DNA of 64,000 nt from an uncultured delta proteobacterium. GTDB taxonomy: Bacteria > Desulfobacterota > Binatia > DP-6. A program made the translations under genes and the position numbers. The notes beneath the pieces were generated by a model. The model saw nothing but the letters and a program-made list of their open reading frames with translations. It was not told the origin of the DNA and did no database searches. Positions 11,868 through 29,772 of this stretch are shown here, in pieces (positions within the stretch are counted from its first letter, which is position 1; each line of letters starts with the position of its first letter). The stretch covers positions 160,001 through 224,000 of the forward strand of contig CAWFFN010000009.1 in the NCBI GenBank assembly GCA_963815115.1, written 5' to 3'.

Positions 11868-13058
11868 CTAGTGCGGCGACTCGGCGGCGTTCGCTGCCAG
11901 CACCGGCTCGGGTCCCTCGACCGGAACCATGCGGCCGTCCGCCAGCACCCGCAGGCGCTGCCCGCTCCAGTCGACGTCGCGTCCGAGCCAGGAGGCGCAC
12001 CAGACGCCCGAGTAGGCGAGATCCTTCAGCGGCACCAGCCAGAGATGGCGGACCGTGTCCGTGTCGCGGAGCATGCCGGCGATCGCCCGCAGACCGAGCA
12101 GCCGGCAGAGAAGCGCCGTCGCGAGCGCGAGCCAGCCGATCGCAGCGCCTCCGGTCGCGAGCACCGCGAGCACTCCCCACAGCGTCGTCTGGATGATGAT
12201 GGTGGCGAACCAGCCGACGGGCTGACAGACACGGTAGGTGCGCGCCCAGCGCAGGTGGTGGCGCCAGACGTCCCGCATGGTCTGCGAGTCGGGCACCGTT
12301 TCCACCACGTAGGGCAGCAGGCGCAGCCCCCAGCCGGCCTCCGCGACGCGGCGCCCGAGCACGTAGTCGTCGGCGAGGTGGGCGCGCATCTCCTCGAAGC
12401 CGCCGATGGCGTCGAGCGCCTCGCGCCTGAACGCGATGGACGCGCCGTAGGCATACCTGAAGCGCTGCACCCACTGCGCCATCAGCACCATGGGGAGGAA
12501 GTCGGTGTTGATGAGGAGCGATTCGACGATGGCGGGAATGCCGCCCGCGGCGCGGCCCCGGTAGAGGCAGGTGGTGAGGCCGACCGCCGGGTCGGCGAGG
12601 GGGGCGACCAGCCGGTGCAGGTAGTCGGCTCGCACCCGGATGTCGGCGTCGCTCAGCACGAGCACGTCGTGCTTGGCGTGGCGCATCATGTGGACCAGGT
12701 TGGCGACCTTGCGGTTGGCGCCCTCCTCGTGGCCGATCGCGAGCGCGATGTCGATGTGCGGGAAGCGCCGCACGAGTCCGCGCACCACCTCGACGGCCGG
12801 GTCACGCGCGTCCTCGACCCCGAAGACGATCTGGTACGCGGGGTAGCCCTGGCGGCAGAAGCTCTCGAGGTTGGCGTCGAGCTCGATTCCGGGACCCTTG
12901 AGCGGCTTCAGCACCGTCACCGGCGGACACGGGGCGGCCGAGCTTCGCGCGCCAGGCCGCGACCGCCGGAGGAAGCGCCACGCGGCCACCAGCTGGACCA
13001 GCTGATAGACGCTCGCCACGCCCGAGCAGGCGAGGACGACGAGGATCAGGGGATGCAT
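11868..13058 (-). CDS. hpnI: Hopanoid-associated glycosyltransferase HpnI (ceramide glucosyltransferase-like)
   Basis: VTVLKPLKG, GANRKVANL, SDADI, LADDYVLG, RWART; directly downstream of hpnJ. Confidence 0.85.
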   Translation of the reverse strand: MHPLILVVLACSGVASVYQLVQLVAAWRFLRRSRPGARSSAAPCPPVTVLKPLKGPGIELDANLESFCRQGYPAYQIVFGVEDARDPAVEVVRGLVRRFPHIDIALAIGHEEGANRKVANLVHMMRHAKHDVLVLSDADIRVRADYLHRLVAPLADPAVGLTTCLYRGRAAGGIPAIVESLLINTDFLPMVLMAQWVQRFRYAYGASIAFRREALDAIGGFEEMRAHLADDYVLGRRVAEAGWGLRLLPYVVETVPDSQTMRDVWRHHLRWARTYRVCQPVGWFATIIIQTTLWGVLAVLATGGAAIGWLALATALLCRLLGLRAIAGMLRDTDTVRHLWLVPLKDLAYSGVWCASWLGRDVDWSGQRLRVLADGRMVPVEGPEPVLAANAAESPH

Positions 13059-13060
13059 GC

Positions 13061-14506
13061 TCACGCCCGAGCCGCCTCCCCGCTCCGTGCCATCTGGCGG
13101 CGCTTCCACATCGCACCGAGGAACTGCCGTCCCTCGGACAGGAGCCGCTTCCGCTCCTCGCGGTCGCGCGCCATCTTCTTGAGCGACTTCCAGATGTAGC
13201 GCCGGCTGAAGTAGTAGCGCCGGTAGAACGTCTCCACCGCGCGGAAGATCTCGTCCGCCGAGACCTCGGGGTAGCTCACGGTGCACTTCTGGTAGCCCAT
13301 GTCGTCGACCAGGCTGTCGACCGTGAGGTAGCCGTTGTCGCGCACCCAGTCGTACATCGCCGTGCCGGGATAGGGCGACGCGAGAGACACCTGGAGGGTC
13401 TCGGGCCGCATCTCCTGCGCGAAGCGAATCGTCTCCTCGATGCTCTCGTGCGTCTCCCCGGGCAGGCCGAGGATGAACGTGCCGTGGATCAGCACGCCGA
13501 CGTCGTGGCAGTCGCGCGTGAAGCGGCGAGCCCGGTCGACGCTCACGCCCTTCTTGATGTTGCGCAGGATCTGCTCGTTGCCCGACTCGTAGCCGACCAC
13601 GAACAGCCGCAGCCCGTTGTCCTTCAGGACGCCCAACGTGTCGCGATCGACGTTCGCACGCGAGTTGGTGGACCACGTGAGCCCCAGCTTGCCGAGCCCG
13701 CGCGCGATCTCCACGGCGCGCTTGGGATCGGCCGTGAAGGTGTCGTCGTCGAAGAAGAGCTCCTTCATCTCGGGGAAGAGCCGCTTCACCCGGGAGCACT
13801 CCTCGAGGACGTTGTCGACGTTGCGCGTGCGATAGCTGTGACCGGTGGTCACCTGCGGCCAGAGACAGAAGGTGCAGCGCGCGGGGCAGCCGCGGCCCGT
13901 GTAGAGCGAGACGTAGGGATACTGGCAGTAGGGGCTGTTGTACTTCTTGTAGTCGAGATCGCGGGCGTAGACGTCGGTGGCGAACGGCAGCGAGTCGAGG
14001 TGCTCGGTCGCGAGCGGCGGCGCCTCGTCGTTGTGCACGTAGATGCCGTCGCGGAGGAAGCTCACGCCGTGGACGTCCGCGAGCGGGCGCCCCTCGGCGA
14101 CCGCCACCACGGCCAGGTCGAACTCCTTGCGCGCGACGTAGTCGATGACGCCGGCGTGACGCAGGGACTCCTCGGGTCGCGCCGTCACGTGTCCGCCGAC
14201 GAAGCCGATCATGGTGTCCGGCTTGGCGGACTTGAGCACCTCGGCGGTGCGCACGTCGGCACGGAACGACGGCGTGCTGGTGTGGATGACGACGTGATCG
14301 TAGTCACGTGCCACCTGCACCACGTCCTCGACCGTCAGGTGCTCGGGCGGAGCGTCGAGCAGCCGGGCGCCGGGCAGCATGCCCGCGGGGTAGGCCAGCC
14401 AGGTCGGGTACCAGAAGGACCAGACCTCGCGCTTCGCCTGGTAGCGCGAGCCGGCTCCTCCGTCGAAGTCGTCATACGAAGGCGGATTCAGCAGCAGCGT
14501 GCGCAT
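13061..14506 (-). CDS. hpnJ: Hopanoid biosynthesis radical SAM protein HpnJ
   Basis: Diagnostic N-terminus LNPPSYDDFDGGAGSRYQAKREVWSFWYPTWLA; CPARCTFC radical SAM motif; GHSYRTR. GG-rich RBS upstream. Confidence 0.92.
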   Translation of the reverse strand: MRTLLLNPPSYDDFDGGAGSRYQAKREVWSFWYPTWLAYPAGMLPGARLLDAPPEHLTVEDVVQVARDYDHVVIHTSTPSFRADVRTAEVLKSAKPDTMIGFVGGHVTARPEESLRHAGVIDYVARKEFDLAVVAVAEGRPLADVHGVSFLRDGIYVHNDEAPPLATEHLDSLPFATDVYARDLDYKKYNSPYCQYPYVSLYTGRGCPARCTFCLWPQVTTGHSYRTRNVDNVLEECSRVKRLFPEMKELFFDDDTFTADPKRAVEIARGLGKLGLTWSTNSRANVDRDTLGVLKDNGLRLFVVGYESGNEQILRNIKKGVSVDRARRFTRDCHDVGVLIHGTFILGLPGETHESIEETIRFAQEMRPETLQVSLASPYPGTAMYDWVRDNGYLTVDSLVDDMGYQKCTVSYPEVSADEIFRAVETFYRRYYFSRRYIWKSLKKMARDREERKRLLSEGRQFLGAMWKRRQMARSGEAARA

Positions 14507-14723
14507 CCCCTTTTTTCCTCTCCTCACTGACCCGATTGAGGCACGCGGTGCGGGCACTTCCGGGCACCTTGCCCGGGCTATCGATCATCCTGACCGAACG
14601 GTAAGCGACGTGCTTAGCGAACCCGACACGGAGGCGCAAGGGAGACGTCACGGTGACGTTGTCTCGCTGACTCAAACGTTGGCTTGCACCGGCGCCTCGG
14701 CCGTCGCATAACCGGCTCGTCGC

Positions 14724-16364
14724 ATGCGAGCGGGTCTGTTGGGGCTTTTCGGGCGGCCGGAGGTCGTGCTCGCGGCGGGAGCCCACGACGCGCTGTCGGC
14801 CAAGCTCGCCGAGGAAGCCGGCTTCGACGCTGTCTGGGCGAGCGGATTCGGCATCTCCGCCGTCCAGGCGCTCCCCGATGCCAACATCTTGACCCTCACG
14901 GAGACGCTGGAGGCGGTCCGGCGCATCTGCGACGCGGTGTCGGTGCCGGTCATCGCGGACTGCGACAACGGGTACGGCAACGCCATCAACGTGATGCGCA
15001 CGGCGAGCGAGTTCGAGCGCGCCGGCGCGGCCGGCATCTGCATCGAGGACAACGAGTTCCCCAAGCGCTGCAGCTTCTACGCCGGCGTGCGCCGCGACCT
15101 CGTGCCGGCCGAGGAGCACGCGCGCAAGGTCGAGGCCGCCTGCTCGGCCCGACACCGGCCGGACTTCGCCGTCATCGCCCGCACCGAAGCCCTGATCGCC
15201 GGCCTCGGTCTCGAGGAGGCGCTGCGCCGCGCGCGCGCCTATGCGGAGGCCGGCGCCGACGCCGTCCTCGTGCACTCGAAGGAGGCCGACTTCGGCGAGC
15301 TCCGCCGCTTCGGCGAGCTGTGGACGCTCGGCGTCCCGCTCGTGGCCGTGCCGACCACCTATCCGGGCGTCGGAACCGACGAGCTCGCGGCGGCGGGCTT
15401 TCGCATGGCCATCTTCGCCAACCAGGCGCTGCGGGCCGCGATCGTCGCCATGCGCGACGTGTTGCGCACGCTGCGCGCGACGGGTCGGGCGGCCAGCATC
15501 GACGACCGCATCGTGCCGCTGGACGAGGTCTACCGCCTGGTGGGCGTGCCGGAGCTCAAGGCGAACGAGCAGCGGTTCCTGTTTGCCGGCGCAGAGGCCC
15601 CGCGCGCCATCATCCTCGCCGCCGGGTTCGAGCCCCAGCTTCTCCCGCTCACCCAGGACCGCCCGAAGACGATGCTCGACGTGAAGGGGAAGACGATCCT
15701 GGAGCGGCAGGTCGAGGCGCTCGGGCGGGTCGGCATCCGCGACGTGGTGGTGGTGCGCGGCTACAAGAAGGAGCAGGTCGCGGCGCCCGGGGTACGCTTC
15801 GTCGACAACGATCGCTACGCCGAGACCGGAGAGCTGCACTCCCTGCTGAGCGCGGGGAGCGACCTGGAAGGCCCCTGCGTCGTCCTCTACGGCGACATCA
15901 TCTTCGAGCCTCCGGTGCTGGAGAAGCTGGTACGCACGCGGGCCGACCTTGCCGTCGTGGTCGACCGGGCGTTCGTCGACACCCTGCATGCGGGCCTCCC
16001 GCTTCCGCCGGGGCCGCTCGACCTGGTGGTCACCGAGACGCCGCCCAACGGCCGCCGCTTCGTGGCGCCCGAGGGCGGCAGCCGCGTGCTGCGCATCGGA
16101 CCCGAGGTCACCCCCGAGGAGGCGCACGGCGAGTTCATCGGGCTCGCCATGCTGTCGGCCGCGGGCGTGCGGCTGCTGCGCGAGGTCCACGCCGAGCTCG
16201 CGTCGAGCCGCGCCGAAGGTCTGGATCGGAGCAGCATCACCCACATCCTGCAGGCGCTCATCGATCGCGGCCACCCGGTCGTGGCGGTCGACATTCACAA
16301 GGGATGGATGGAGATCGACAGCTTCGAGGACTACCGGCGGGCATGGGCCGAGGTGACGCGCTGA
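14724..16364 (+). CDS. pepM: PEP mutase-family enzyme fused to C-terminal NTP (cytidylyl) transferase
   Basis: GAHDALSA, WASGFGISA, DCDNGYGN, IEDNEFPKRCSF, ARTEALI, VPTTY, IFANQ; then IILAAG..PKTML..YGDI..WMEIDS. Phosphonate gene context supports the call. Confidence 0.78.
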   Translation: MRAGLLGLFGRPEVVLAAGAHDALSAKLAEEAGFDAVWASGFGISAVQALPDANILTLTETLEAVRRICDAVSVPVIADCDNGYGNAINVMRTASEFERAGAAGICIEDNEFPKRCSFYAGVRRDLVPAEEHARKVEAACSARHRPDFAVIARTEALIAGLGLEEALRRARAYAEAGADAVLVHSKEADFGELRRFGELWTLGVPLVAVPTTYPGVGTDELAAAGFRMAIFANQALRAAIVAMRDVLRTLRATGRAASIDDRIVPLDEVYRLVGVPELKANEQRFLFAGAEAPRAIILAAGFEPQLLPLTQDRPKTMLDVKGKTILERQVEALGRVGIRDVVVVRGYKKEQVAAPGVRFVDNDRYAETGELHSLLSAGSDLEGPCVVLYGDIIFEPPVLEKLVRTRADLAVVVDRAFVDTLHAGLPLPPGPLDLVVTETPPNGRRFVAPEGGSRVLRIGPEVTPEEAHGEFIGLAMLSAAGVRLLREVHAELASSRAEGLDRSSITHILQALIDRGHPVVAVDIHKGWMEIDSFEDYRRAWAEVTR

Positions 16365-16864
16365 GCGCGCCGCTGCCCGCGGTCCCCTTCGTCGATCGTC
16401 TCTTTGCCGCCGGCTTCGACTTCTTCACCGGTGTGCCCTGCTCCCTCGTCGCGCCCGTGATCGCCGAGCTCGAACGGCGCGGGAGCTACCTGGGCGACAC
16501 GCGCGAGGACGCGGCGCTCGGCGTCGCCGCCGGCGCGTACCTCGCCGGCCGGCTTCCCGTGGTGATCATGCAGAACTCGGGTCTCGGGGTGTCGCTCAAC
16601 GCACTCGGGTCGCTGCATCTGCTCTACGAGCTCCCGGTGCTGCTGCTCGTCACCTGGCGGGGCTTCGAGGGCCGGGACGCTCCCGAGCACCTGGTCATGG
16701 GCGGGGTGCTGACCGGCGTGCTCGATCTCTTCGAGATCCCCCATCGCGCTCCGGATGCGTCCACGCTGCTCGCCGACGTCGACTGGGCGGCGGCCACGCT
16801 CCGGGCGACCCGCAAGCCCGCGGCGCTCATCGTGAAGCCGGGGCTCTTCGCCGAGCACCACTGA
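16361..16864 (+). CDS. Phosphonopyruvate/sulfopyruvate decarboxylase alpha subunit (ComD-like)
   Basis: FFTGVPCSL, REDAALGVAAG, MQNSGLG, TWRG..DAPEH. The only plausible start is CTG in the CTGA overlap with the pepM stop. Confidence 0.85.
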   Translation: MSAPLPAVPFVDRLFAAGFDFFTGVPCSLVAPVIAELERRGSYLGDTREDAALGVAAGAYLAGRLPVVIMQNSGLGVSLNALGSLHLLYELPVLLLVTWRGFEGRDAPEHLVMGGVLTGVLDLFEIPHRAPDASTLLADVDWAAATLRATRKPAALIVKPGLFAEHH

Positions 16865-16865
16865 C

Positions 16866-17432
16866 ATGACGCTGCGCGACGCTCTCGACCGCATCGCCCC
16901 CCGCCTGCGCGGTGAGGTCTGCGTGCACGCGAACGGACATCTCTCACGCGCGGCGTTCGGCGTGCGCGACGCCGACACCAGCTTCTACATGATCGGGTCG
17001 ATGGGGCTCGCCTCGTCGATCGGGCTCGGCATCGCGCTCTGCCGGCCGGACCGCCGCGTGATCGTCTTCGACGGCGACGGGAACGTCCTCATGAACCTCG
17101 GCACCCTGGCGACGATTGCCGTCGCGGCGCCACGGAACCTCCTCCATCTCTGCTTCGACAACTCCGCGCACGCCTCGACCGGAGGCCAGCCGACCATCTC
17201 GAATCGGGTCGCGCTGGACGCGCTGGCGCGCGCCGCCGGCTATCGCTGGACGGGCCGCGTGGAGTCGCCCGAAGCGCTCGAGGCGGTGCTGCCCGAGTTC
17301 CTTGGCCGATCCGGACCGGCTTTCCTCCTGGTACGCATCGTCCTCGGTCCGCCGGGAGCGCCGGGTCCGCGCATTCCCTGGACGCCAGTGGAGATGACGG
17401 CCCGGCTGCGTCGCGCGCTCGGGTCCGCGTGA
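16866..17432 (+). CDS. Phosphonopyruvate/sulfopyruvate decarboxylase beta subunit (TPP-binding, ComE-like)
   Basis: FYMIGSMGLASSIGLG, DGDGNVLMNLG, DNSAHASTGGQ. Confidence 0.88.
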   Translation: MTLRDALDRIAPRLRGEVCVHANGHLSRAAFGVRDADTSFYMIGSMGLASSIGLGIALCRPDRRVIVFDGDGNVLMNLGTLATIAVAAPRNLLHLCFDNSAHASTGGQPTISNRVALDALARAAGYRWTGRVESPEALEAVLPEFLGRSGPAFLLVRIVLGPPGAPGPRIPWTPVEMTARLRRALGSA

Positions 17433-17441
17433 GCCGGAAGC

Positions 17442-18743
17442 GTGGTCGAGGCGCTGCGGTCGAACGAACGGACGCGACCACTCGACCTCGAGGCGTGCCT
17501 GCGAGCGACCGCCGCGGGTGCCCTCGCCGGTCTGGTGGGCGGGAGCTATCGTTCCATTCTCGACGGCGTCGATCCGTGGCGACAGGACCTGATCGCTCGA
17601 CTCGGCGGCACGGTCTTCGGATGGCTGGCGCTGGCCGCCGTCTTCGCGCTCGGCGCGGGACTGGCCGCCTGGCTCACGGTGCGCTTCGTGCCCGAGGCCG
17701 CAGGCAGCGGCATCCCACACGTCGAGGAGACGCTGGTGCGGGGTGGACGGCTGCGCTGGAAGCGGCTGCTCCCGATCAAGTTCGTCGCCGGCGCCCTGGC
17801 GCTCGGAGCCGGACTGTCGCTCGGACGCGAAGGCCCCACCGTCCACCTCGGCGCGGCACTGGCCTCGGCGCTGGAGGGCCGGCTCGGAACGACTGCCCGT
17901 CGCGCGCTGCTGGCCGCGGGGGCTGCCGCGGGTTTGACGGCTGCCTTCAGCGCGCCGATCGCCGGTGCGGTCTTCGTGCTCGAGGAGCTTCGCGTCGCCC
18001 CGAACCTGCTCATGATTTCGACCGGTCTGCCGGCGGTGCTCGCGTCGTACCTCGTGACCACGGCGATGCTCGGGTCGCAGCCGATGTTCGCCCTCCCGCC
18101 GGTAGGGGCCCCGTCCCCCTGGGTGCTGCCGCTGTTCGCTGCGCTCGGGATCGGCGCCGGCATCCTGGGCGTGGTCTTCAATCGCGGCCTGCTCGGCGCC
18201 CTGGCGGCGTTCGGGTCGATGCGCCGCGTGCCACGGCCGCTCCGTGCCGCCGCCGTCGGCGTCTTGGCGGCGCTCGTCGCCTGCTGGGTGCCGGCCGCGA
18301 TCGGCAGCGGTGAGCCGACCGCCCAGATCTTGATCCAGGGTCCTCCTTCGCCGCTGGCGAGCCTCGTGCTCCTGCTCGCGGTCAAGCTCGTCCTCACCCT
18401 GGCGAGCTACGGCTGCGGCGTGCCGGGCGGCATCTTCGCCCCGCAGCTCGTTCTCGGAGCGACGCTCGGCGCCATCGTGCATGCGCTGGCCCCCGGCCTG
18501 GGCGGCGGCGCGCTCGGTCCCGTGCTCGCGACGGCCGGAATGGTCGGCGTCTTCAGCGCCTCGGTGCGCGCGCCCCTCACCGGGCTCGTGCTCGTGGTCG
18601 AGCTGACGCACCGGGGCCAGCTGCTGCTGCCGCAGGCGATCACGGCGATCGTCGCCTATCTCCTCGCGGCCGGCCTGCGCGACCGCCCGATCTACGAAGC
18701 GCTGCGCGAGCGGGACGCCGGGCGCGCGAGCGCGGCCATTTGA
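17442..18743 (+). CDS. ClC-family H+/Cl- antiporter without CBS domains
   Basis: GSGIP, GREGP (gating Glu), VLEEL, GGIFAP, PIYEAL. Confidence 0.9.
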   Translation: MVEALRSNERTRPLDLEACLRATAAGALAGLVGGSYRSILDGVDPWRQDLIARLGGTVFGWLALAAVFALGAGLAAWLTVRFVPEAAGSGIPHVEETLVRGGRLRWKRLLPIKFVAGALALGAGLSLGREGPTVHLGAALASALEGRLGTTARRALLAAGAAAGLTAAFSAPIAGAVFVLEELRVAPNLLMISTGLPAVLASYLVTTAMLGSQPMFALPPVGAPSPWVLPLFAALGIGAGILGVVFNRGLLGALAAFGSMRRVPRPLRAAAVGVLAALVACWVPAAIGSGEPTAQILIQGPPSPLASLVLLLAVKLVLTLASYGCGVPGGIFAPQLVLGATLGAIVHALAPGLGGGALGPVLATAGMVGVFSASVRAPLTGLVLVVELTHRGQLLLPQAITAIVAYLLAAGLRDRPIYEALRERDAGRASAAI

Positions 18744-18788
18744 CGGCACCAGCCGGATCGGAGACAAGGCTGCGCCGGAGGACCCGCC

Positions 18789-19349
18789 GTGAAGCCCGAC
18801 GAGTGCATCCTCTTCAGCGGCGCCGCCCAAGGCGCCGAGGCCGCCTTCGGCGAGTGCGCAGAGCGCTATGGAATCGAGGAGGTGAACTTCACCTTCGAGG
18901 CGCACAGCGACGCTCGCACGCGTGGCATCCGCGTGCTCACCAGCGCGGAGCTCAAGCACGGCGACGTCAGCCTCGCCTACGTGAGCCGCCTGATGAACCG
19001 GCGCTATCCCGACACGCCGCTCTTCCGGAAAGTGCTGCAGAGCATCTGGCACCAGGTGAACAACGGTCAGGACATCTTCCTGGTCGGGAAGATCCAGCCC
19101 GACGGTACGGTCGTGGGTGGCACCGGCGTGAGCGCGGAGTACGCCAAGTTCTTCAACAAGCGCCTCCACGTCTTCGACCAGGATCGCGACGCCTGGTCAC
19201 GCTGGAGCGGCGACGTCTGGGAATCCGCCGCAGAGCCCGTGATCACGCACCCGTTCTTCACCGGCACGGGGACGCGGTTCCTGCGCGACAACGGGCGTGG
19301 CGCGATCGACGGCCTCTTCGCGCGCACGTTCGGCGCGCCGAAGCGCTAG
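18789..19349 (+). CDS. Conserved hypothetical protein, possibly SLOG-superfamily nucleotide-binding fold
   Basis: LFSGAAQGAEAAF, GGTG, HVFDQ, TGTGTR. GGAGGA RBS upstream. Confidence 0.6.
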   Translation: MKPDECILFSGAAQGAEAAFGECAERYGIEEVNFTFEAHSDARTRGIRVLTSAELKHGDVSLAYVSRLMNRRYPDTPLFRKVLQSIWHQVNNGQDIFLVGKIQPDGTVVGGTGVSAEYAKFFNKRLHVFDQDRDAWSRWSGDVWESAAEPVITHPFFTGTGTRFLRDNGRGAIDGLFARTFGAPKR

Positions 19350-19645
19350 ACGCCCCGGGGCGTCGTGCACCACGCTGCGCCGGACCGGCCGACGTAGCCC
19401 CCAGACCCGGACCTCCACCTCTCTTCGCCTTCCGACAGGGCGGCGTCACAGCCTCCGACGCGCATCGGGCCGCGCCGCACGGGGTGCCGGACGACCCGGA
19501 CCCGCGGTGCTCGCGGGGGCGAACTAGGCTGCGAACGCGTTCATCCTGGACGAAGGGGTTGACACGGAGGGTCGAAGGATGGGCGCAAACCCGGCGACGA
19601 GGTACACGGTTCGAGGGCATGACGGGGCTCCGCGGTTCATCCGGG

Positions 19646-20863
19646 ATGAAAACTGCAGTCGAGATGCGTCCCGCCCGCGTCGGGCCGGCCGCCGATCAGT
19701 CCGGTCGAGGTGCTCTCCCCGCGGGTCAGCGGCCCGGACGCAGATACTTCCCGGAGCTCGAGTCGCTGCGCGGGATGGCCGTGTCGCAGGTCTTCGCCAT
19801 GCACGCGGTCGGATGGGTATTCGGGGGTCTGGCCGGCACGAGCGCGCTGTTCCCGGCACTCGTGAAGAGCGATCGGCTCGGGGTCGACCTCTTCTTCGTG
19901 CTGAGTGCGTTCCTCCTCTCCCTGCCCTTCCTGGAAGACGCCGCCGGCGGCCCTCGCGTCCGCGTGCGAGGGTACTTCGGACGCCGCGCGTTGCGGATAC
20001 TACCCGCCTACTATGTCGCGACGGTCATCGGCACCGTCCTGTTGGCGAAGCAGCCCCGCGATCTGCTCCGAGGGCTTCCCTACCTGGTCTTTTTGAACCC
20101 GTTCGCCACCCCGCTCCGGCCGTACAGCGACGTGTGGTGGAGTCTCGCGACCGAGGTCCAGTTCTACGCCGTGCTCCCGCTCCTTGCTGTGCTCGGCCGC
20201 TCGACCGCCGGGCGCCGGCTCGGGGTCGCGGCCCTGCTCGTCTGGATGGCCAGCTATCTCGCCTTCCTGAGCGGTGTGCTCGTCCCTCGCAGCGCCGCAG
20301 GCCTCTTGACCTTCGAAGCATCCCTCTTCGGCCGCGCGCCGCTCTTCCTTGCCGGCATCGCCGCCGCAGCAGTGTACCGGGCGCACGGCGCGAGCATCCG
20401 CGAGCGGCTCGAGCGCGCTCGTTTCATGCGCAAGGGCGGGAGCGACCTCCTTCTCGTGCTGGTGATCCTGGGAATCGCAGCCTTCTCCCGCTGGCAGGAG
20501 ACGCTCGGCCCCGCACTTCTTCTGTCGCCCCGCTACCAGTACCGCGACCTCGTGACCGCGGCCCTGGTCGTCGCGCTGCTCTTGCTTCTCGTGCTCGCGC
20601 CGCTGCGGTCGAAGGCGCTGTTCGTCAACCCGATCTTCGGGGGACTCGGTATCATCTCGTATTCCGTCTACCTGATACACCTCCCACTCATGATCTTCCT
20701 GATCGGCTATCGCCCCTTCGCGAGCATCATCAGGAACGTTCCGGATGTTCGCCTCCAGCCGTTCGTGGTGTTCATCGCGATCGCCACCGCGTGCGTCGCC
20801 GTCTCGACCCTGACCTATTGGGTCATCGAGCGGCCCTTTCTGCTGCGGAAGAGCAGGCTCTGA
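19646..20863 (+). CDS. Acyltransferase-3 (OafA/YrhL-like) membrane O-acyltransferase
   Basis: ELESLRGMA, GVDLFFVLSAFLL, RRALRILPAY, WSLATEVQFY, GIISYSVYLIH, YWVIERP. Confidence 0.88.
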   Translation: MKTAVEMRPARVGPAADQSGRGALPAGQRPGRRYFPELESLRGMAVSQVFAMHAVGWVFGGLAGTSALFPALVKSDRLGVDLFFVLSAFLLSLPFLEDAAGGPRVRVRGYFGRRALRILPAYYVATVIGTVLLAKQPRDLLRGLPYLVFLNPFATPLRPYSDVWWSLATEVQFYAVLPLLAVLGRSTAGRRLGVAALLVWMASYLAFLSGVLVPRSAAGLLTFEASLFGRAPLFLAGIAAAAVYRAHGASIRERLERARFMRKGGSDLLLVLVILGIAAFSRWQETLGPALLLSPRYQYRDLVTAALVVALLLLLVLAPLRSKALFVNPIFGGLGIISYSVYLIHLPLMIFLIGYRPFASIIRNVPDVRLQPFVVFIAIATACVAVSTLTYWVIERPFLLRKSRL

Positions 20864-21630: not shown

Positions 21631-21669
21631 CGCGAGAGGGTGACGGCGGTCCCACCGGCACCCACGCCC

Positions 21670-22341: not shown

Positions 22342-22361
22342 GCATGCGAGAGTCACACATC

Positions 22362-22408: not shown

Positions 22409-22510
22409 TTCTGAGCCGGAACGCGCCGGGACACCCCCGGATGCGCAGCGAGAGGGGCACAGCTCCTCGCGACATTGCATCGCGCGGGCCTTGCGCCCTA
22501 AGCAGCGGGC

Positions 22511-24013
22511 ATGCCTCGCCCGAGCGCAGTTCTCGGCACGCTCTCCCTCGAGCGCACCGGCGCCGTCGCGCTCCAGCGCCAGCTCTACGGTGCGCTGCGC
22601 GAGGCGATCCTCACGGGCCGCCTCCCGCCGGGCACCCGCCTGCCCTCGAGCCGCACCCTCGCCGGCGATCTGGGCGCTGCCCGCAACACCGTCGTCGGAG
22701 CCTTCGAGCAACTCGCGGCCGAGGGCTACGTCGAGGCGCGGGTCGGCGACGGTACCCGGGTGGCGGCGGTGTTGCCGGAGACCCTCCTGCACGCCGGCCG
22801 GGCGCACGTCCCGCAGGCCGCCCGCCCGAGCGCCCCGGACCTGTCGCGGCGCGGGCGGGCGATCGTCGCTGCGCGCCGCCCGCTGCCGGACGCGAGCCGG
22901 CGCGCATTCCAGCCGGGACTTCCCGCGCTCGAGGAGTTCCCGAGCGAAACGTGGGCGCGCCTGGTCGCCCGTCGCTCCCGGGCACCGGTCCGGGGCAGCC
23001 TGGGCTACGGTCATCCCGCAGGCCTGCCCCTGCTGCGGCAGGCGATCGCCGCCTACGCCGGCGGCGCACGCGGCGTGATCTGCGATGCGGAGCAGGTGAT
23101 CGTCGTCGCGGGCGCCCAGGCGGGGCTCGATCTCGCGTGCCGCCTCCTCCTCGACGCCGGCGACGCCGCGTGGATGGAGGAGCCCGGCTACCTCGGCGCG
23201 CGCGGGGCGCTCCTGGGAGCGGGAGCGCAACCGGTCCCCGTCGCGGTCGACGCCGAGGGCATCGACGTGGAGGCGGGACGGCGCGCGGGCCGCCCGGCAC
23301 GTCTCGTCTACGTGACACCGTCCCATCAGTTCCCGCTCGGCGTGACCATGACCCTCGCCCGCCGGCTCGCACTGCTGGCCTGGGCGGCGGAGGCGGGCGC
23401 GTGGGTTCTCGAGGACGACTACGACAGCGAGTATCGCTACGCCGGCCGGCCGATCGCCGCCATGCAGGGACTCGATCCCGCCGGACGCGTCGTGTACGCG
23501 GGCACGTTCAGCAAGACCATGTTCCCGGCGCTGCGTGCGGGCTACCTGATCGTTCCGCCTGCGCTGGTCGACGCCTTCGGCGCGGCGGTGCGCGTGACCG
23601 GCCACCAGGTGCCGGCAGCGGAGCAGGCGGCGCTCGCCGACTTCATCACCGAGGGGCATTTCGCGTCCCACGTGCGGCGCATGCGCGCTCTGTACGCTGC
23701 ACGGCGCGAGCACCTGGTGGCAGCGTTGCAGCGGAGGTTGCCGGCGCTCCTCGAGGTCGTCCCCTCGGAGGGCGGCATGCAGCTGGCGGCGACCCTGGCG
23801 CCCGGCGTGGACGACGTGGCCGCCTCGCGGGCGGCGGATGCGGCCGGCATCGTCGCGCCCCCGCTCTCGATGTATCACCTCGGCCCACGTCGGCTCCGCG
23901 GGCTGCATCTGGGCTATGCGAGCGTGCGCGAGCGCGAGGTCACTTCGGCGGTGGAGCGCCTCGCGCGCGCGCTCGAGTCGGTCGCCCCGAGGCGCAGCCG
24001 GCGCGTTCCGTGA
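22511..24013 (+). CDS. MocR/GabR-family regulator (GntR HTH + PLP aminotransferase domain)
   Basis: RLPSSRTLA..RNTVVGAFEQLAAEGY, YVTPSHQFPLG, EDDYDSEYRY, GTFSK. Confidence 0.93.
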   Translation: MPRPSAVLGTLSLERTGAVALQRQLYGALREAILTGRLPPGTRLPSSRTLAGDLGAARNTVVGAFEQLAAEGYVEARVGDGTRVAAVLPETLLHAGRAHVPQAARPSAPDLSRRGRAIVAARRPLPDASRRAFQPGLPALEEFPSETWARLVARRSRAPVRGSLGYGHPAGLPLLRQAIAAYAGGARGVICDAEQVIVVAGAQAGLDLACRLLLDAGDAAWMEEPGYLGARGALLGAGAQPVPVAVDAEGIDVEAGRRAGRPARLVYVTPSHQFPLGVTMTLARRLALLAWAAEAGAWVLEDDYDSEYRYAGRPIAAMQGLDPAGRVVYAGTFSKTMFPALRAGYLIVPPALVDAFGAAVRVTGHQVPAAEQAALADFITEGHFASHVRRMRALYAARREHLVAALQRRLPALLEVVPSEGGMQLAATLAPGVDDVAASRAADAAGIVAPPLSMYHLGPRRLRGLHLGYASVREREVTSAVERLARALESVAPRRSRRVP

Positions 24014-24169
24014 GCAGGGCAAGCCGATACGCCGTGCCCGTTGCCGCGCCGAGCCTGGTGGCTCCGGCAGTTCCCGGACGCGGGGATCGGCTGGCCACCC
24101 TGCCCGTTCCTCACGGGCGCCACCGGTGATGAGCGGTGGCGTGCCGTCGCGGCGGGTGCTACCCCCGCG

Positions 24170-25240
24170 ATGCTTGATCGCATGATCCTGCTCAATCCGG
24201 GTCCCGTGAACGTCTCGCCGCGCGTCACCGCCGCGCTCGGTCGCGGCGATCTGTGCCACCGCGAGCCGGAGTGCGCCGCGCTCCTGGAGCGCATCCGCGG
24301 CCGGCTCCTCGAAGCGTTTGCGCCGCGCGCCGGCTTCACGGCCGTGCTGATCACCGGCTCGGGAACTGCCGCCGTCGAGGCCGCGGTGACCAGCGTGTGC
24401 TCGGAGCGGGGCCGCCTGGCGGTCGTGTGCAACGGCATCTACGGCGAGCGCATCGTGGCCATGGCGGCGGCGGCGCGCATTCCGGTGACGCGATTGGAGG
24501 GTGCCTGGACCGCTCCGCCGGATCTGGCCGCGGTCGAGGCGGCGCTCCGCGCGCCGGACGTCGAGGCGGTCGCGGTCGTGCACCACGAGACCACGACCGG
24601 TCTGATCAACCCGGTCGCGGAGATCGCGCGGCGGGCGCGTGCGCTCGGCAAGCTCGTGCTGGTCGACGCGGTCAGCGGACTCGGCGGCGAGCCGCTCGAC
24701 GTCGCCGGGATCGACCTGGTCGTGGGCACCGGCGGCAAGTGCATCCAGGCGTTTCCCGGCATGGGATTCGTGCTGGTGCGGCGGGACGTGCTGGACCGGC
24801 TCGCCGCCTACCCACGCCGTTCGGTCTACCTGTCGCTGGCCACCTACACCGCGAGCGCCATGCCGTTCACTCCGGCGGTGCAGGTCGCGTACGCGCTCGA
24901 CGAGGCGCTCGCCGAGCTGCTCGAGGAGACCGTCGCGGGCCGCATCGCGCGCTACGCCGGCGCGGCGGCGCTCCTGCGCGACGGGTTCGGGCGCCTCGGG
25001 CTCGAGCTCGTCCTCCCGCCCGATCTGCGCTCCAACACCATCACGTCGCTCCGCTTTCCGCCGGGTCGGAGCTACCCCGAGCTGCACGACGCGCTCAAGG
25101 CGCGCGGGTACGTGATCTACGAGGGACAGGGATGGTTCGCGAAGGAGGCGTTCCGGGTGGCGAACATGGGGGTGCTCGGGCGCGCGGACCTCGAGGGCTT
25201 CCTGGTCGCGCTCGGCGACGCGCTCGGAGCCGCCCGATGA
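24170..25240 (+). CDS. 2-aminoethylphosphonate transaminase (class V, PhnW/AepZ-like)
   Basis: LLNPGPV, DLCHRE, GSGTAAVEA, NGIYGER, HHETTTGLINP, SVYLSL, PFTPAV, YVIYEGQG. Confidence 0.87.
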   Translation: MLDRMILLNPGPVNVSPRVTAALGRGDLCHREPECAALLERIRGRLLEAFAPRAGFTAVLITGSGTAAVEAAVTSVCSERGRLAVVCNGIYGERIVAMAAAARIPVTRLEGAWTAPPDLAAVEAALRAPDVEAVAVVHHETTTGLINPVAEIARRARALGKLVLVDAVSGLGGEPLDVAGIDLVVGTGGKCIQAFPGMGFVLVRRDVLDRLAAYPRRSVYLSLATYTASAMPFTPAVQVAYALDEALAELLEETVAGRIARYAGAAALLRDGFGRLGLELVLPPDLRSNTITSLRFPPGRSYPELHDALKARGYVIYEGQGWFAKEAFRVANMGVLGRADLEGFLVALGDALGAAR

Positions 25241-25971
25241 CCGCGATCGTCCTCGCCGCCGGGGTCGGAAAGCGCCTGCTGAACGCCTCCGGTGGCCGCC
25301 CCAAGTGCCTCATCGAGATCGGCGGCAAGAGCCTGCTGCGCCGGCTGCTGGAGAGCCTCGCGGCCGCCGGGGTGCGCGAGGCGGTGGTGGTGGCGGGCTT
25401 CGGGGACGCGGAGGTGCGCGCCGCGCTCGCCCCTCCGGTCGACGGCATCGCCGTCCGCTGCCTCACCAACCCGCGTTTCCGGGAAGGCGCGATCCTCTCC
25501 CTGTGGACGGCGCGCGACGCCCTCGACGGCGGCGTGCTGATCATGGACGCCGACGTGCTCTGCCCGAGCGCGATGCTGGCGCGGCTCGTGACGTCGCAGC
25601 ACGCGAACTGCTTCCTGCTCGATGCGAGCCAGGAGAACACCGGCGAGGAGCAGATGCTGCTGGTGCAGGACGGCCGCGTCCGCAACATCGTACGCGGCGG
25701 CGCCCCGGGGTACGACCTGATGGGCGAATCGATCGGCTTCCTGAAGCTCGGCGCGGACGCCGCCCGATGTCTGCGCGAGCTGCTGGCCGCTCGGGTGGAG
25801 ACCGGGGACACGAGCATCGAGCACGAGGAGGTGTATCCGGCGCTCCTGGAACGCGTCGACGTCGGATTCGAGCGGGTGGACGGCATGCCGTGGATCGAGA
25901 TCGACTTCCCGGAGGACGTGGCGAGAGCGGAGCGGGAGGTCCTCCCCCGGATCGAGGGACACGCGCGGTGA
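25237..25971 (+). CDS. LicC/PntC-family (phosphonyl/phosphocholine) cytidylyltransferase
   Basis: IVLAAGVGKRL..PKCL, MDADV, GESIGF, WIEIDFPED. ATGA-coupled to the transaminase. Confidence 0.87.
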   Translation: MTAIVLAAGVGKRLLNASGGRPKCLIEIGGKSLLRRLLESLAAAGVREAVVVAGFGDAEVRAALAPPVDGIAVRCLTNPRFREGAILSLWTARDALDGGVLIMDADVLCPSAMLARLVTSQHANCFLLDASQENTGEEQMLLVQDGRVRNIVRGGAPGYDLMGESIGFLKLGADAARCLRELLAARVETGDTSIEHEEVYPALLERVDVGFERVDGMPWIEIDFPEDVARAEREVLPRIEGHAR

Positions 25972-26672
25972 CGGAAGGCGGGGGCGCTGCCGTCCCCGTC
26001 GGCAATCCGCGCGACGGCTACTTCGACCGGCTGGTGTCCCGCCGGCTGTCGCCCGCCGTGACGCGCCTGCTGCTCCCGACCGCCCTCACCCCGAACGCGG
26101 TCACCATCGCGAGCACTGCCATCGGGGTCGTGGGCGGTCTGCTGGTGGGCAGCGAGGGGAGCGCCGGCATCGTCGCGGGGATCCTGTGCCTCCTCGTCTC
26201 GGGGGTCCTCGACTGCTGCGACGGCGAGCTGGCGCGGCTCCGCGGGACCAGCTCCCGTATGGGGCACGCACTCGACGTCCTCGGGGACACGCTGGTGGCC
26301 GTCGCGTTGCTCGCGGGCATCGCGCTGCATCTGGCGCGTGCCGGCAGCTTCCCCGGCTGGCCGGCGCTCGTCGCGCTCCTCCTCGGCGTCGCCGGCGCCT
26401 TCGCCGTCATCACGTGGAGCGAGGCAAGGGCAGCGCGCCGGCGCCAGGTCGCGTGCTGGGAGAACGGCGTCCTCGACGGCGTCCTCGGTCCGCTGACGAC
26501 GCGCGACTGGTACGTGTTTCCCGTCGCCTTCGCGCTGGCGGGCCGGCTCGGCTGGCTGGTCCCGGCGGCTGCGGTGGGCGCCCACGTCTTCTGGCTGGTG
26601 ACGCTGGTGCTCCTGCTGCGCGTGCTCCGAGCCGCTCAGCTCCACGGAAGCGCGGCTCGCGTCCGCCAGTAG
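25968..26672 (+). CDS. CDP-alcohol phosphotransferase
   Basis: TPNAVT and DCCDGELAR..SSRMGHALDVLGD signature; multiple TM helices; GTGA-coupled. Confidence 0.88.
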   Translation: MTEGGGAAVPVGNPRDGYFDRLVSRRLSPAVTRLLLPTALTPNAVTIASTAIGVVGGLLVGSEGSAGIVAGILCLLVSGVLDCCDGELARLRGTSSRMGHALDVLGDTLVAVALLAGIALHLARAGSFPGWPALVALLLGVAGAFAVITWSEARAARRRQVACWENGVLDGVLGPLTTRDWYVFPVAFALAGRLGWLVPAAAVGAHVFWLVTLVLLLRVLRAAQLHGSAARVRQ

Positions 26673-27652: not shown

Positions 27653-28762
27653 TCAGGCGCTCTTCAATCCCTGGAGGTCCGCCGTCCGTCGCGCCAGGTA
27701 GAGCAAGCCGATGCCGTCGAAGAAGACCTCGCGCGCCCGCTTGAGGAGCCACAGCGTCAGGGCTTCTGCCTCGGGCATGCCGAGGAACGTGCACAGCCAG
27801 ACGCCGCCCAGCTCCTGGGTGCCGATGCTGCCCGGGATGACGAGCGCGGTCGCGCGGATCGGCTGGGAGAGCGTCTCGATGACGAAGGCGTCGAGCCAGG
27901 ACACGCTTCCGCCCGTCAGCACGACGATGACCACCACCTCGGCGACGCCGATCAGCCAGCCGACGAAGTGGCACGTGGCGGCGAGCAGGAAGGCGCGCGG
28001 CTCCCAGCGATAGAACTCGCGCAGCCGGACGTCGAAGGCGGCGGCCCCGGACTCCAGGCGGGCGACGAACCCCGCGCGGGGCGCGAACCGGCGGAGCGTT
28101 CGCCAGAGGGCGGTCGCCGGGCTGCGTCGCTGCACCCAGACCAGGCCTCCGGTGAAGGCAAGGCAGATCACGATCAGCGCGACGAGCCAGCCCATGGCCA
28201 TCTGCGGGCGCCCGAGACGCAGGAGGAGCGCGGCGATGCCGAGCGCCGTGAACAGACTCTGCGACGCGACCAGCGCGGTCTTCGAGATCACCACGGAGGC
28301 GAAGGCTTCGGCGCCGCTCACCTGCCAGCGGCGCAGGAGGTACGCCTTGATCGGCTCGCCGCCGACGGCGGCCGCGGGCGTGAGGCTGTTCACCGCCTCG
28401 CCGGCCATGCGGCTCAGCGTGAGCGAGGAGAACGGCACCCTCCCCCGCGCCGCCACGGACAGCGTGTAGCGCCAGCCGAACGCATCGGCCAGGGTCACCA
28501 GGGCGTAGGGAACGAGGATGAGCGGTGCGGCCCAGCCGAGCGCGCGTACCCGGTGCCAGACGGGCTCGAGCCCGGCGTGGTGCAGGAGCCAGCCAAGGAC
28601 GGCGAGCCCGGCGGCGGCGGCGAGCACGGTGGTCACGCGGCGACGAATCGGGCTGGCGGTGACGGCGTCCTGCGCGCCGGCGCGAGCCGGGGCCGGCAGG
28701 GCGCGCTTGCGCGACCGCTCAGCGCCCACGTCGGCCGCCAGGATGGTTTCGGGCGATGTCAC
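27653..28762 (-). CDS. Lysylphosphatidylglycerol-synthase-TM (flippase-like, HpnL-like) membrane protein
   Basis: RMAGEAVNSLTP..VGGEPIKAYLL, IPGSIGTQE, KRARE; multiple TM helices. Confidence 0.8.
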   Translation of the reverse strand: MTSPETILAADVGAERSRKRALPAPARAGAQDAVTASPIRRRVTTVLAAAAGLAVLGWLLHHAGLEPVWHRVRALGWAAPLILVPYALVTLADAFGWRYTLSVAARGRVPFSSLTLSRMAGEAVNSLTPAAAVGGEPIKAYLLRRWQVSGAEAFASVVISKTALVASQSLFTALGIAALLLRLGRPQMAMGWLVALIVICLAFTGGLVWVQRRSPATALWRTLRRFAPRAGFVARLESGAAAFDVRLREFYRWEPRAFLLAATCHFVGWLIGVAEVVVIVVLTGGSVSWLDAFVIETLSQPIRATALVIPGSIGTQELGGVWLCTFLGMPEAEALTLWLLKRAREVFFDGIGLLYLARRTADLQGLKSA

Positions 28763-29772
28763 GCACTGCCGCCGCCAGTTGCGCTACGGTCGGCGGCCTC
28801 GAGTGCCTCCACGACGCGCAGCGAGCGCGCGCCGCTGGTGAGAGGCTCGGCTCCGGCCCTGACGCACTCGACGAAGTGCTCCGCCGCCAGCGCCAGGGGT
28901 TCGCTCGCCGCGGGTAGCTCGAGCGCGCGGCCGGCGAATCCGGAGATGGGCACGATCGGGGCCAGCGCGCGTTCGGATGTGGGGCTCAGATCGAGCGCGA
29001 AGTCGTAGAGCGTGAGCCCCCGTTTCTCGAACCGGCCCTCGTACGCCAGCATGCGCTCGCGCCCGACGACGATCACCTTGGCCGTCTTCTCGGGATGGAG
29101 CCAGCTGAGATGGATGTGGGCCGAAACACCCCCGGCGAGCTCGACGTCGCACAGCGCCACGTCGGCGATCCCCGGCTGAAGGTGCGCATGACGGTGCAGG
29201 CGGATCGCCGTCACGGGGCGCGGCACGAGGTAGAAGAGGATCGAGAGGTCGTGCGGCGCGGAGTTCCACCACACGTCCGAGTCGCGGCGGATGCGACCCA
29301 TGCCGAGCCGCTCGAACGTGAGGTGGAGGACGGACCCGAGGGCGTCGGCCTCCACCAGACGCTTCATCTCGCGCACCAGCGGGTCGTAGAGAAAGGTCTC
29401 GTCCACGAACAGCACGCGATCGGTCTTGCGCGCGGCGTCGACGAGCTCGCGCCCGTGGGCGGCCGACAGGGCGAGCGGCTTCTCCACCCAGACGTGCTTG
29501 CCGGCGCGGAGCGCCGCCAGCGCCATGGCGTGATGCCGTGACGGTGGCGTGGCGATCACGATCGCGTCGATCTCGGGACGCCGGACCAGCGACGCGAAGT
29601 CGTCGCTGCACTCGAGGTGCGGATGATCGGCGCGTGCCGCGGCGAGACGTTCAGGATCGAGATCGCACAGGCTCGAAAGCCGCGCGCTGGGGAGACGGCT
29701 GAACGTCCGCAGGAGGTTCTTCCCCCAGTATCCCGCTCCGGCGATGGCGATGTTCGGAGCTCGTGCCTCCAT
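28759..29772 (-). CDS. Gfo/Idh/MocA-family NAD-dependent (sugar) oxidoreductase
   Basis: GAGYWGKNL, IATPP, GKHVWVEKP, APHDLS, SWLHPEK. Confidence 0.9.
   Translation of the reverse strand: MEARAPNIAIAGAGYWGKNLLRTFSRLPSARLSSLCDLDPERLAAARADHPHLECSDDFASLVRRPEIDAIVIATPPSRHHAMALAALRAGKHVWVEKPLALSAAHGRELVDAARKTDRVLFVDETFLYDPLVREMKRLVEADALGSVLHLTFERLGMGRIRRDSDVWWNSAPHDLSILFYLVPRPVTAIRLHRHAHLQPGIADVALCDVELAGGVSAHIHLSWLHPEKTAKVIVVGRERMLAYEGRFEKRGLTLYDFALDLSPTSERALAPIVPISGFAGRALELPAASEPLALAAEHFVECVRAGAEPLTSGARSLRVVEALEAADRSATGGGSA

Follow-up and report, generated by a model that had tools for sequence, protein, structure and literature searches.

The 64,000-nucleotide stretch of DNA analysed here (the window; bases 160001-224000 of contig C9, G+C content 71.7%) comes from a 6.9-Mb genome in 12 contigs with a completeness rating of 100%. 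On its forward strand, at 14724..16364, it carries a gene whose 546-residue translation, read from an ATG start, fuses a phosphoenolpyruvate (PEP) mutase-like domain to a nucleoside triphosphate (NTP)-transferase-like domain. The active-site lid of this fusion protein holds a cysteine at a position where textbook PEP mutases hold an asparagine. We consider it likely that the N-terminal domain is a functional PEP mutase and that it belongs to an uncharacterised Cys-lid group which motif filters have overlooked. This reading draws on the conservation of residues, on purifying selection on the lid, on the repeated tight coupling to a decarboxylase of the phosphonopyruvate decarboxylase (Ppd) type and on the absence of an alternative mutase from the six carrier genomes examined.

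A hybrid active-site lid in a PEP mutase-like domain

The open reading frame (ORF) and the Pfam matches agree with the first-pass annotation of this DNA, which had placed a PEP mutase-like enzyme here. PF13714 (PEP_mutase) covers residues 13-249 (E 2.4e-56, 191.4 bits, profile positions 9-238 of 240), and PF12804 (NTP_transf_3) follows at residues 295-413 (E 1.3e-14). The nearest solved structure found with HMMER is the PEP mutase 5unc (E 1.6e-80 over residues 3-295), followed by the phosphonopyruvate hydrolase 2dua (E 3.1e-68) and the Mytilus PEP mutase 1m1b (E 6.4e-61). Among the NCBIfam models, the fusion protein scores below the cut-off of the PEP mutase equivalog TIGR02320 (263.1 bits against 319.55) as well as those of phosphonopyruvate hydrolase (TIGR02321; 251.8 against 374.4), prpB (TIGR02317; 195.5 against 354.4) and carboxy-PEP mutase (158 against 420.05).

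The lid, IEDNEFPKRCSF, is encoded at 15042..15077 (+) and spans residues 107-118. Its core reads EDNEFPKRCS and does not match the diagnostic motif EDKX5NS. In the HMMER alignments it lies opposite IEDKRFPKVNSF in 5unc, LEDKLFPKTNSL in 1m1b and MEDKTFPKDTSL in 2dua. Compared with the solved PEP mutases, the catalytic loop is changed at two positions only: Asn110 replaces the Lys of 'EDK', and Cys116 replaces the residue that we take to be Asn122 in the numbering of the Mytilus enzyme; the Ser is retained. In 2dua, the Asn122 position is occupied by Thr. The metal- and phosphoryl-binding residues, which we presume from the literature on Mytilus PEP mutase to be D58, D85, D87, E114, K120, S123, R159 and H190, all have identical equivalents in the fusion protein when it is aligned with the three structures.

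The first-pass annotation had described the loop as a hybrid (K to N, N to C, Ser retained), and the alignments with the three structures and with a lyase-type paralogue from the same genome bear this out. The paralogue is about 41% identical to the fusion protein. The P-K-R-C of its loop, EDQVIPKRCGH, aligns exactly with that of the lid, Cys to Cys, which makes the label apt. The lyase branch (methylisocitrate lyase and others, EDQ..PK[RK]CGH) also shares Phe42 and Asn82 with the window protein. Other lyase features are absent: the Cys is followed by Ser-Phe instead of Gly-His, His184 lies opposite the Glu of the paralogue, and TIGR02317 stays below its cut-off.

An alignment of 23 Cys-lid and 81 canonical rows revealed 38 positions that are at least 90% conserved in both sets. 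These include D52, D79, D81, E108, D109, K114, S117, R153 and H184 (fusion-protein numbering). Clean discriminators between the two sets are three positions only, with F42, N82 and C116 in the Cys-lid rows against Leu, Thr and Asn in the canonical ones; at position 116, Cys occurs in 23/23 of the former and Asn in 81/81 of the latter. The residue of the Cys-lid rows at each of these three is also the dominant one in the five lyase-type rows. The Lys-to-Asn change fell below the discrimination thresholds, because Cys-lid rows also have Ser or Ala there.

With canonical PEP mutase (PepM or Ppm, EC 5.4.2.9, TIGR02320; 5unc from Streptomyces platensis, 1m1b/1pym from Mytilus edulis) the window protein shares the PF13714 fold family, the metal and phosphoryl ligands, the C-terminal PF12804 fusion and, as described below, the partnership with a Ppd-type decarboxylase and a predicted 2-aminoethylphosphonate (AEP) transaminase. 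It differs in its lid (EDN..KRCS against EDK..xNS), in F42 and N82 (against Leu and Thr), in its score below the TIGR02320 cut-off and in its position outside the canonical clade. Phosphonopyruvate hydrolase (PalA, 2dua, TIGR02321) is another enzyme with a residue other than Asn at the Asn122 position, but it combines Thr with EDK, whereas the window protein combines Cys with EDN and lies in a context that appears biosynthetic, not catabolic.

Conservation and spread of the Cys-lid variant

The Cys-lid variant is a conserved, widespread group and represents neither chance nor decay. This became apparent in the survey of EDN..PKRCS homologues and their neighbourhoods that the first-pass annotation had suggested. 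A word-indexed protein search returned 3332 proteins at E <= 0.001 among 8000 candidates scored. The query and the best 120 of those 3332 proteins (74-97% identity) form the close set, in which 120 of 121 sequences carry EDN[ED]FPKRCS, 84 as EDNEFPKRCS and 36 as EDNDFPKRCS; the remaining one has no match in the stretch searched.

A genome scan with six peptide patterns found 223 pattern-matching stretches, 159 of them coding for relatives. The best 80, which were retained, correspond to 76 distinct loci with 48-87% identity. The lid ED[NSA]x[F]PK[RKQ]CS[FL] is present in 76/76 loci, a count that overstates exclusivity, as two of the six patterns were variant-specific and biased the scan to the Cys-lid group. 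About a dozen phyla are represented, according to taxon labels that were taken from record titles and NCBI ranks and may be unreliable for metagenome-assembled genomes (MAGs). The labels comprise Binatota, Myxococcota, Planctomycetota, Acidobacteriota, Omnitrophota, Chlamydiota, Thermodesulfobacteriota, Rokuibacteriota, Eiseniibacteriota and Auribacterota, as well as one Chloroflexota MAG, one Bacillota MAG, Streptomyces sp. SID3343 and Actinomadura chibensis. The Myxococcota include ten complete Sorangium genomes, So ce56 among them.

An unbiased HMMER search with residues 1-290 against 1.84 billion representatives gave 10741 matches at E <= 0.001, of which 1276 reach E <= 1e-30. In the top 150 representatives, 83 lids are of the canonical K..NS type, 25 are N..CS, 14 N..NS, 2 S..CS and 1 Y..CS, and the remainder show rarer lid combinations or no motif. 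Thus, in the vicinity of the fusion protein, neither Lys nor Asn is as invariant as the EDKX5NS filter assumes. Further non-canonical lids in the same 150 are EDN..HS (2), ED[SA]..NS (4) and EDQ..NS (2), plus SS and TS forms; the Lys of 'EDK' is not invariant even where Asn-Ser is kept.

Phylogenetic position

In the phylogeny within the isocitrate lyase/PepM superfamily, likewise suggested by the first-pass annotation, both trees that we built put the Cys-lid rows outside the canonical clade. The FastTree tree contains 151 rows (135 of the 150 representatives, 14 locus translations, the query and its own paralogue, L004) and was rooted on five lyase-type rows; 15 representatives covering fewer than 236 profile positions and one partial L001 paralogue match were left out. 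The canonical EDK..NS rows form one clade of 94 rows (support 97), with hydrolase-like K..TS rows nested in it and the Cys-lid and other EDN rows outside. The window protein falls within a 23-row Cys-lid cluster (support 83).

The IQ-TREE analysis (LG+C20+F+G4 PMSF, quick search) covered 91 rows, namely all 70 non-canonical ones and every fourth canonical one. Here, the clade of canonical and hydrolase rows is nested (SH-aLRT 93) among unresolved EDN lineages. The backbone of both trees is poorly resolved. The free search split the Cys-lid rows, and a tree that keeps all 32 ..CS rows together, a group defined after inspection of the tree, was 32.8 log-likelihood units better (p-AU 0.748, approximately unbiased test). 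Because the constrained tree beat the free search that split them, we claim neither a grade nor a proven clade for these rows. A single origin and a single retention of the Cys are both compatible with the trees; its ancestry depends on the position of the root, which the trees do not fix.

PEP mutases in carrier genomes

The genome of the window has four PF13714 genes: the fusion gene, a lyase-type gene with the loop EDQVIPKRCGH, and two distant genes that lack a gating loop. No canonical PEP mutase was found among these genes in this genome, rated as 100% complete. Likewise, TIGR02320 gave no match that exceeds its cut-off in any (0/5) of the five further carrier genomes examined (So ce56, the genomes of loci L024 and L073, Streptomyces sp. 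SID3343 and Actinomadura chibensis). The top match in each of the five is the Cys-lid enzyme itself (262-302 bits), and the other matches are EDQ..PKRCGH types that reach at most 121 bits.

Matches at E <= 1e-50 were also counted in a sample of 201 genomes of the window's phylum, the window's own (G000) included. Nine of the 201 genomes matched. Five have canonical EDKX5NS enzymes, one of them at 319.1 bits, just below the cut-off, and four have the Cys-lid form only. These four comprise the window's genome, a second member of its family and two further members of its class. Another two genomes of the class gave no match, which puts the variant in 4/6 of its members sampled.

Gene neighbourhood and proposed pathway

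Directly downstream of the fusion gene, as the first-pass annotation had noted, lie two genes for the subunits of a thiamine pyrophosphate-dependent, Ppd-like decarboxylase, both on the + strand. The ATG of the alpha subunit gene (16343..16864, PF02776) overlaps the end of the fusion gene, and the beta subunit gene follows at 16866..17432 (PF02775). On the Ppd model TIGR03297, the cut-off of which is 312.5 bits, the alpha subunit scores 119.9 bits, compared with 109.3 on the sulfopyruvate decarboxylase alpha model, both below the cut-offs. The beta subunit scores 164.4 bits on TIGR03297, also below the cut-off, and 160.2 on sulfopy_beta.

The AEP transaminase reported nearby was recovered as an AEP-transaminase-like class-V aminotransferase gene at 24014..25240 (+; PF00266). 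Its nearest NCBIfam model is the AEP aminotransferase TIGR03301 (PhnW-AepZ; 307.1 bits, cut-off 360.8). The stop codon of this gene is overlapped by the ATG of a stand-alone PntC/LicC-type nucleotidyltransferase gene (25237..25971, +; 244 residues, PF12804 E 1.8e-15) with an intact AAGVGKRL...PK motif, and the stop codon of the latter by the GTG start of a CDP-alcohol phosphotransferase gene (25968..26672, +; PF01066). Neighbours in this trio overlap by 4 nt. On the - strand, at 27653..28783, a flippase-like membrane protein is encoded (LPG_synthase_TM, HpnL-like; PF03706; TIGR03476 HpnL 179.1 bits, cut-off 195.65).

Going by predicted gene functions, this context is a complete AEP lipid-type pathway. 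The N-terminal domain of the fusion protein would convert PEP to phosphonopyruvate, using a gating loop with a lyase-type Cys (K-R-C-S) for the textbook x-N-S, and Cys116 would take the place of the hydrogen bond that Asn122 makes to the migrating phosphoryl group. The unfavourable equilibrium would be pulled by the translationally coupled two-subunit decarboxylase (16343-17432), which would yield phosphonoacetaldehyde. From this, the class-V aminotransferase (24014-25240) would produce AEP, and the stand-alone PntC-type cytidylyltransferase (25237-25971) would produce CMP-AEP. The CDP-alcohol transferase (25968-26672) could then place the phosphonate head group onto a membrane alcohol, and the flippase-like protein (27653-28783) could move the product across the membrane.

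The fused domain and the stand-alone cytidylyltransferase

The fusion to an NTP-transferase described in the first-pass annotation stands only in part. PF12804 is indeed present at residues 295-413, but the domain lacks GxG(T/S)R, and the separate, intact enzyme encoded at 25237-25971, which that annotation had missed, seems the likelier activating enzyme. The fused domain (15606..16361, +) has the P-loop AAGFEPQL (15618-15638) in the place of that motif. It matches LicC (1jyk) at E 5.8e-15 and the PntC-AEPT fusion 6pd1 at E 8.8e-07. AAGFEPQL lies opposite AAGLGTRL in the former and AGGLGSRL in the latter; the second Gly and the Arg are missing, and the downstream P-K is retained.

GxGxR was found in 0/73 Cys-lid fusions (61 judged by pattern and 12 by eye) and in 0/29 fused domains among the representatives (P0124-P0269), canonical EDK..NS fusions included. 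The degeneracy is therefore common to Ppm-fused PF12804 domains and not specific to the variant. The fused domain is probably not the active cytidylyltransferase and probably has a structural or regulatory role. By extension, the commonest type of 'Ppm-PntC fusion' may lack cytidylyltransferase activity. The degeneracy is in keeping with the second, intact nucleotidyltransferase that is usually present, in the window the one at 25237-25971.

The latter gene is obscured in the list of longest ORFs. The ORF at 25305-26672 was rejected as a 455-residue protein: its first ~230 residues (25305-25990) are out-of-frame, Arg/Gly-rich junk. Reading frame 1 shows the nucleotidyltransferase at 25237-25971, with the N-terminus MTAIVLAAGVGKRLL...RPK.

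Other genes in the window

A gene for a ClC-type H+/Cl- exchanger homologue (17433..18743, +; PF00654 E 1.5e-86; NF003640 ClcA 328.7 bits, cut-off 350) begins one base past the stop codon of the decarboxylase beta subunit; a homologue is present in only 5/76 loci. It is followed by two ORFs without a family match (18744-19349 and 19579-20886, both +). Directly upstream of the transaminase gene lies a gene for a MocR/GntR-type regulator with a pyridoxal phosphate (PLP)-type domain (22502..24013, +; PF00392 and PF00155, MocR/PdxR-type models). Apart from the flippase-like protein, the downstream genes on the - strand encode an aldo/keto reductase, a GFO/IDH/MocA oxidoreductase, a family-2 glycosyltransferase and a DegT aminotransferase.

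On the other side of the fusion gene, and divergent from the ppm-like operon, is the gene for HpnJ, a hopanoid-associated B12 radical SAM protein (13061..14557, -; TIGR03471 707.1 bits, cut-off 577.6), next to that for HpnI, the bacteriohopanetetrol glucosamine glycosyltransferase (11868..13061, -; TIGR03472 379.2 bits, cut-off 310). About 10 kb past the cluster, a methyltransferase gene is directly followed by an enolase gene (36578-38590, +), in a region that also has an ArnT/PMT-type glycosyltransferase and an Omp85-family gene.

Pfam found no 2-oxoglutarate oxygenase between 11868 and 31839; the only 2OG-FeII_Oxy_2 gene lies at 52440-53129. Rfam gave no matches in the window. A scan of 14400-26900 returned no promoter-like sites and five terminator-like sites, compared with 3.1 expected.

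The neighbourhood across relatives

The window proteins were searched with tblastn against the 76 loci, 47 of which are well flanked (at least 5 kb upstream and at least 6 kb downstream). Across all 76, the NTP-like domain was found in 72 loci, the decarboxylase alpha subunit in 58, the beta subunit in 55, the aminotransferase in 35 and the flippase-like protein in 21. HpnJ was found in 15 and HpnI in 14; the ClC exchanger, the MocR regulator and the CDP-OH transferase of the window's type were found in five each. Among the well-flanked loci, the decarboxylase pair is present in 40/47, the NTP-like domain in 45/47 and the aminotransferase in 22/47. The start of the alpha subunit gene lies no more than 200 nt from the fusion gene in 43 of the 58 loci that have it.

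All-against-all clustering of 4493 ORFs from the loci, followed by Pfam, revealed a stand-alone PF12804 gene in 35 loci, a PF12804+PF01066 fusion in 15 and two further PF01066 (CDP-OH transferase) families in 14 and 10 loci. Two clusters (c9 and c10) that could be taken for conserved unknown genes were rejected, being antisense shadows of the genes for the decarboxylase beta subunit and the transaminase.

The same clustering yielded an ORF of ~340 residues resembling squalene-hopene-cyclase-C/prenyltransferase domains (weak SQHop_cyclase_C/Prenyltrans matches), which is absent from the window and present in 10 loci: L007, L015, L018, L020, L036, L045, L051, L072, L079 and L080 (for example at 8837-9865 in L018 and at 3450-4487 in L080). 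It lies directly 3' of the Cys-lid fusion gene in four Binatia-type loci and occurs also in six Planctomycetia/Omnitrophota loci. The adjacency of hpnI/hpnJ, seen in 14-15 loci, is nearly confined to the window's own lineage, plus L044, and its link to the pathway is unproven.

In Streptomyces sp. SID3343 (L050, 10001-17830), the Cys-lid enzyme (IEDNEFPKKCSF) stands alone, with no decarboxylase. Its neighbours are two ATP-grasp ligases, glutamate mutase S and E, a major facilitator superfamily (MFS) transporter and a methyltransferase. This locus may represent a cluster of the phosphonopeptide type, which would escape motif filters. In Actinomadura chibensis, a stand-alone Cys-lid gene lies beside an MFS transporter and FAD monooxygenases, again with no decarboxylase.

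Survey filters and the closest known cluster type

Published surveys apply filters that the fusion protein does not pass. The available text of Rice et al. 2019 (PMC6697681) describes how an EDKXXXXXNS filter reduced 27,716 PF13714 proteins to 1485, with 22 fused sequences discarded. According to the portions available, a perfect EDKX5NS filter was also applied by Li & Horsman 2022 (PMC8942020), in a 2025 paper in RSC Chem Biol (PMC12723261) and, together with trusted HMM cut-offs and TIGR02320, by Acker et al. 2022 (PMC8931226). Such surveys drop the fusion protein because its lid fails EDKX5NS and its score falls below the TIGR02320 cut-off (263.1 < 319.55), so the first-pass annotation was right that standard pepM screens would miss it. 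It had also asked whether the variant might be an already characterised, routine PepM; in the literature searched, of which the coverage was partial, we found no description of an EDN..CS PEP mutase.

The closest known cluster type is the 'Burkholderiales_CDP-OH' family, which the available text of Li & Horsman 2022 (PMC8942020) equates with the Group 1 phosphonolipids of Yu et al. 2013 and the product of which, in the same text, has never been characterised. The core given there consists of Ppm, Ppd, AEPT, a 2-oxoglutarate oxygenase, two PntCs (one of them fused to Ppm) and two phospholipid genes. As far as that text describes the family, the window shares with it a Ppm with a PntC-like fusion, Ppd, AEP transaminase, a second PntC and phospholipid-type genes (in the window, the CDP-OH transferase and the flippase-like protein). 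It differs in the Cys lid, in Ppd being encoded by two genes, in the lack of a 2-oxoglutarate oxygenase in the cluster and in the adjacent hpnI/hpnJ. The split decarboxylase does not point away from phosphonates, since the available text of the same paper reports a split Ppd for rhizocticin-type clusters.

Alternative explanations

A divergent PepM group in overlooked phosphonate producers, as the first-pass annotation had proposed, fits everything computed here: the conserved group, the active-site residues, the coupling to the decarboxylase and the sole PepM-like gene in six genomes. Several points weigh against it. Asn122 is reported to be catalytically important in Mytilus PEP mutase, and enzymes of the lyase branch use a Cys at this position as their general acid/base. 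The position may steer the type of reaction, given the Thr of phosphonopyruvate hydrolase. Because the canonical clade excludes the Cys-lid rows (support 97 in one tree and SH-aLRT 93 in the other), their function is not bracketed by characterised enzymes. All three core enzymes (mutase, decarboxylase and transaminase) score below the NCBI equivalog cut-offs, and the decarboxylase subunits score nearly as well on the sulfopyruvate decarboxylase models. The decarboxylase was not found in 7/47 well-flanked loci (L021, L045, L047, L050, L056, L063 and L071), the stand-alone Streptomyces and Actinomadura genes among them. Finally, a measured activity for any Cys-lid member was not found in the literature searched.

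One rival reading is a mutase of the PEP mutase type that has an altered substrate or an added chemical step. In such an enzyme the Cys, F42 and N82 would retune the pocket, or the Cys would act as acid, base or nucleophile, and the product would not be plain phosphonopyruvate. In its favour, all three positions separating the groups are lyase-like, and Cys116 sits on the catalytic lid; the joint shortfall of the three pathway enzymes and the other contexts of the SID3343 and Actinomadura chibensis members, with no decarboxylase, point the same way. We nevertheless regard this as unlikely, given that the phosphoryl- and metal-binding residues are unchanged, that the downstream enzymes match phosphonate-specific models best and that the gene set is that of a known type of AEP-lipid cluster, as the latter appears in the available text of PMC8942020. 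There are also no arsenic genes nearby, and the arsonopyruvate route uses an enzyme of the phosphoglycerate mutase family, not of the PEP mutase superfamily. An arsenic analogue pathway was rejected: the genes of the bisenarsan/arseno-organic cluster, which in the available text of PMC4943196 and PMC12159101 include an EPSP-synthase homologue and a phosphoglycerate-mutase-family enzyme, were not seen among the Pfam-scanned ORFs of the window.

The alignment of Cys116 with the Cys of the lyase motif PKRCGH raises the question of whether the protein is instead a hydrolase or a lyase, either similar to phosphonopyruvate hydrolase or cleaving oxaloacetate or another C-C bond, in which a lyase-type Cys protonates the pyruvate enolate. 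Phosphonopyruvate hydrolase, too, departs from PEP mutase at the Asn122 position (Thr), and its model scores nearly as high as that of PEP mutase (251.8 against 263.1 bits). Such an activity seems quite improbable in what looks like an anabolic context, made up of a decarboxylase that requires phosphonopyruvate, a cytidylyltransferase, a CDP-alcohol transferase and a flippase, with no other source of phosphonopyruvate in 6/6 genomes checked. The lyase-specific neighbours of the Cys are missing as well (Ser117 for Gly and His184 for the Glu of the paralogue), and the hydrolase-like K..TS rows fall inside the canonical clade, apart from the Cys-lid group. We give very little credence to a sulfonate pathway (from sulfopyruvate via sulfoacetaldehyde to a taurine-like product) or to another heteroatom analogue. 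The two-subunit decarboxylase is nearly neutral between the sulfopyruvate decarboxylase models (109.3 and 160.2 bits) and Ppd (119.9 and 164.4 bits), yet the transaminase is closest to AEP transaminase models, and a cytidylyltransferase and a CDP-alcohol transferase would need a phosphate or phosphonate group to activate. We know of no PEP-mutase-type route to sulfopyruvate. The sulfopyruvate reading of the split decarboxylase is further weakened by scores of both subunits below the sulfopyruvate decarboxylase cut-offs, by their slight preference for Ppd and by the split Ppd that the available text of PMC8942020 reports in accepted phosphonate clusters. A scaffold role for a PEP mutase-like domain devoid of catalytic activity would be compatible with the unmatched diagnostic motif and with the degeneracy of the fused NTP-like domain itself. 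It is highly improbable, given that all ligands of the metal and of the phosphoryl group, like the variant lid itself, are conserved across about a dozen phyla and down to 48% identity and that an alternative mutase was found in none of six genomes.

The reading as a functional PEP mutase could be taken further. The Cys lid might be the older form of C-P mutase, in which thiol, Phe and Asn persist from an ancestor that resembled a lyase; the Cys might be chemically active as a proton shuttle or through a transient thiophosphate instead of being a passive substitute for Asn122, and in the window's lineage AEP might be carried on a hopanoid or polyprenoid, not on a glycerolipid. We put this combination forward tentatively and consider it doubtful. 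A hopanoid or polyprenoid acceptor would be in line with the divergently adjacent hpnI/hpnJ, with the HpnL-like flippase in the cluster and with the cyclase-like ORF in 10 loci of two lineages. To our knowledge, a phosphono-hopanoid has never been described.

Implications

Estimates of phosphonate producers and genome mining rest on a perfect EDKX5NS motif or on the trusted cut-off of TIGR02320, and the Cys-lid group fails both. Sorangium cellulosum So ce56 and genomes labelled as Planctomycetota, Acidobacteriota, Omnitrophota and Chlamydiota have no candidate other than the Cys-lid form. If these enzymes are active, the phosphonate producers of soils and sediments would be undercounted. The 'diagnostic' Asn122 would then be replaceable in nature, and the Cys-lid group would offer a ready-made test of its mechanistic role.

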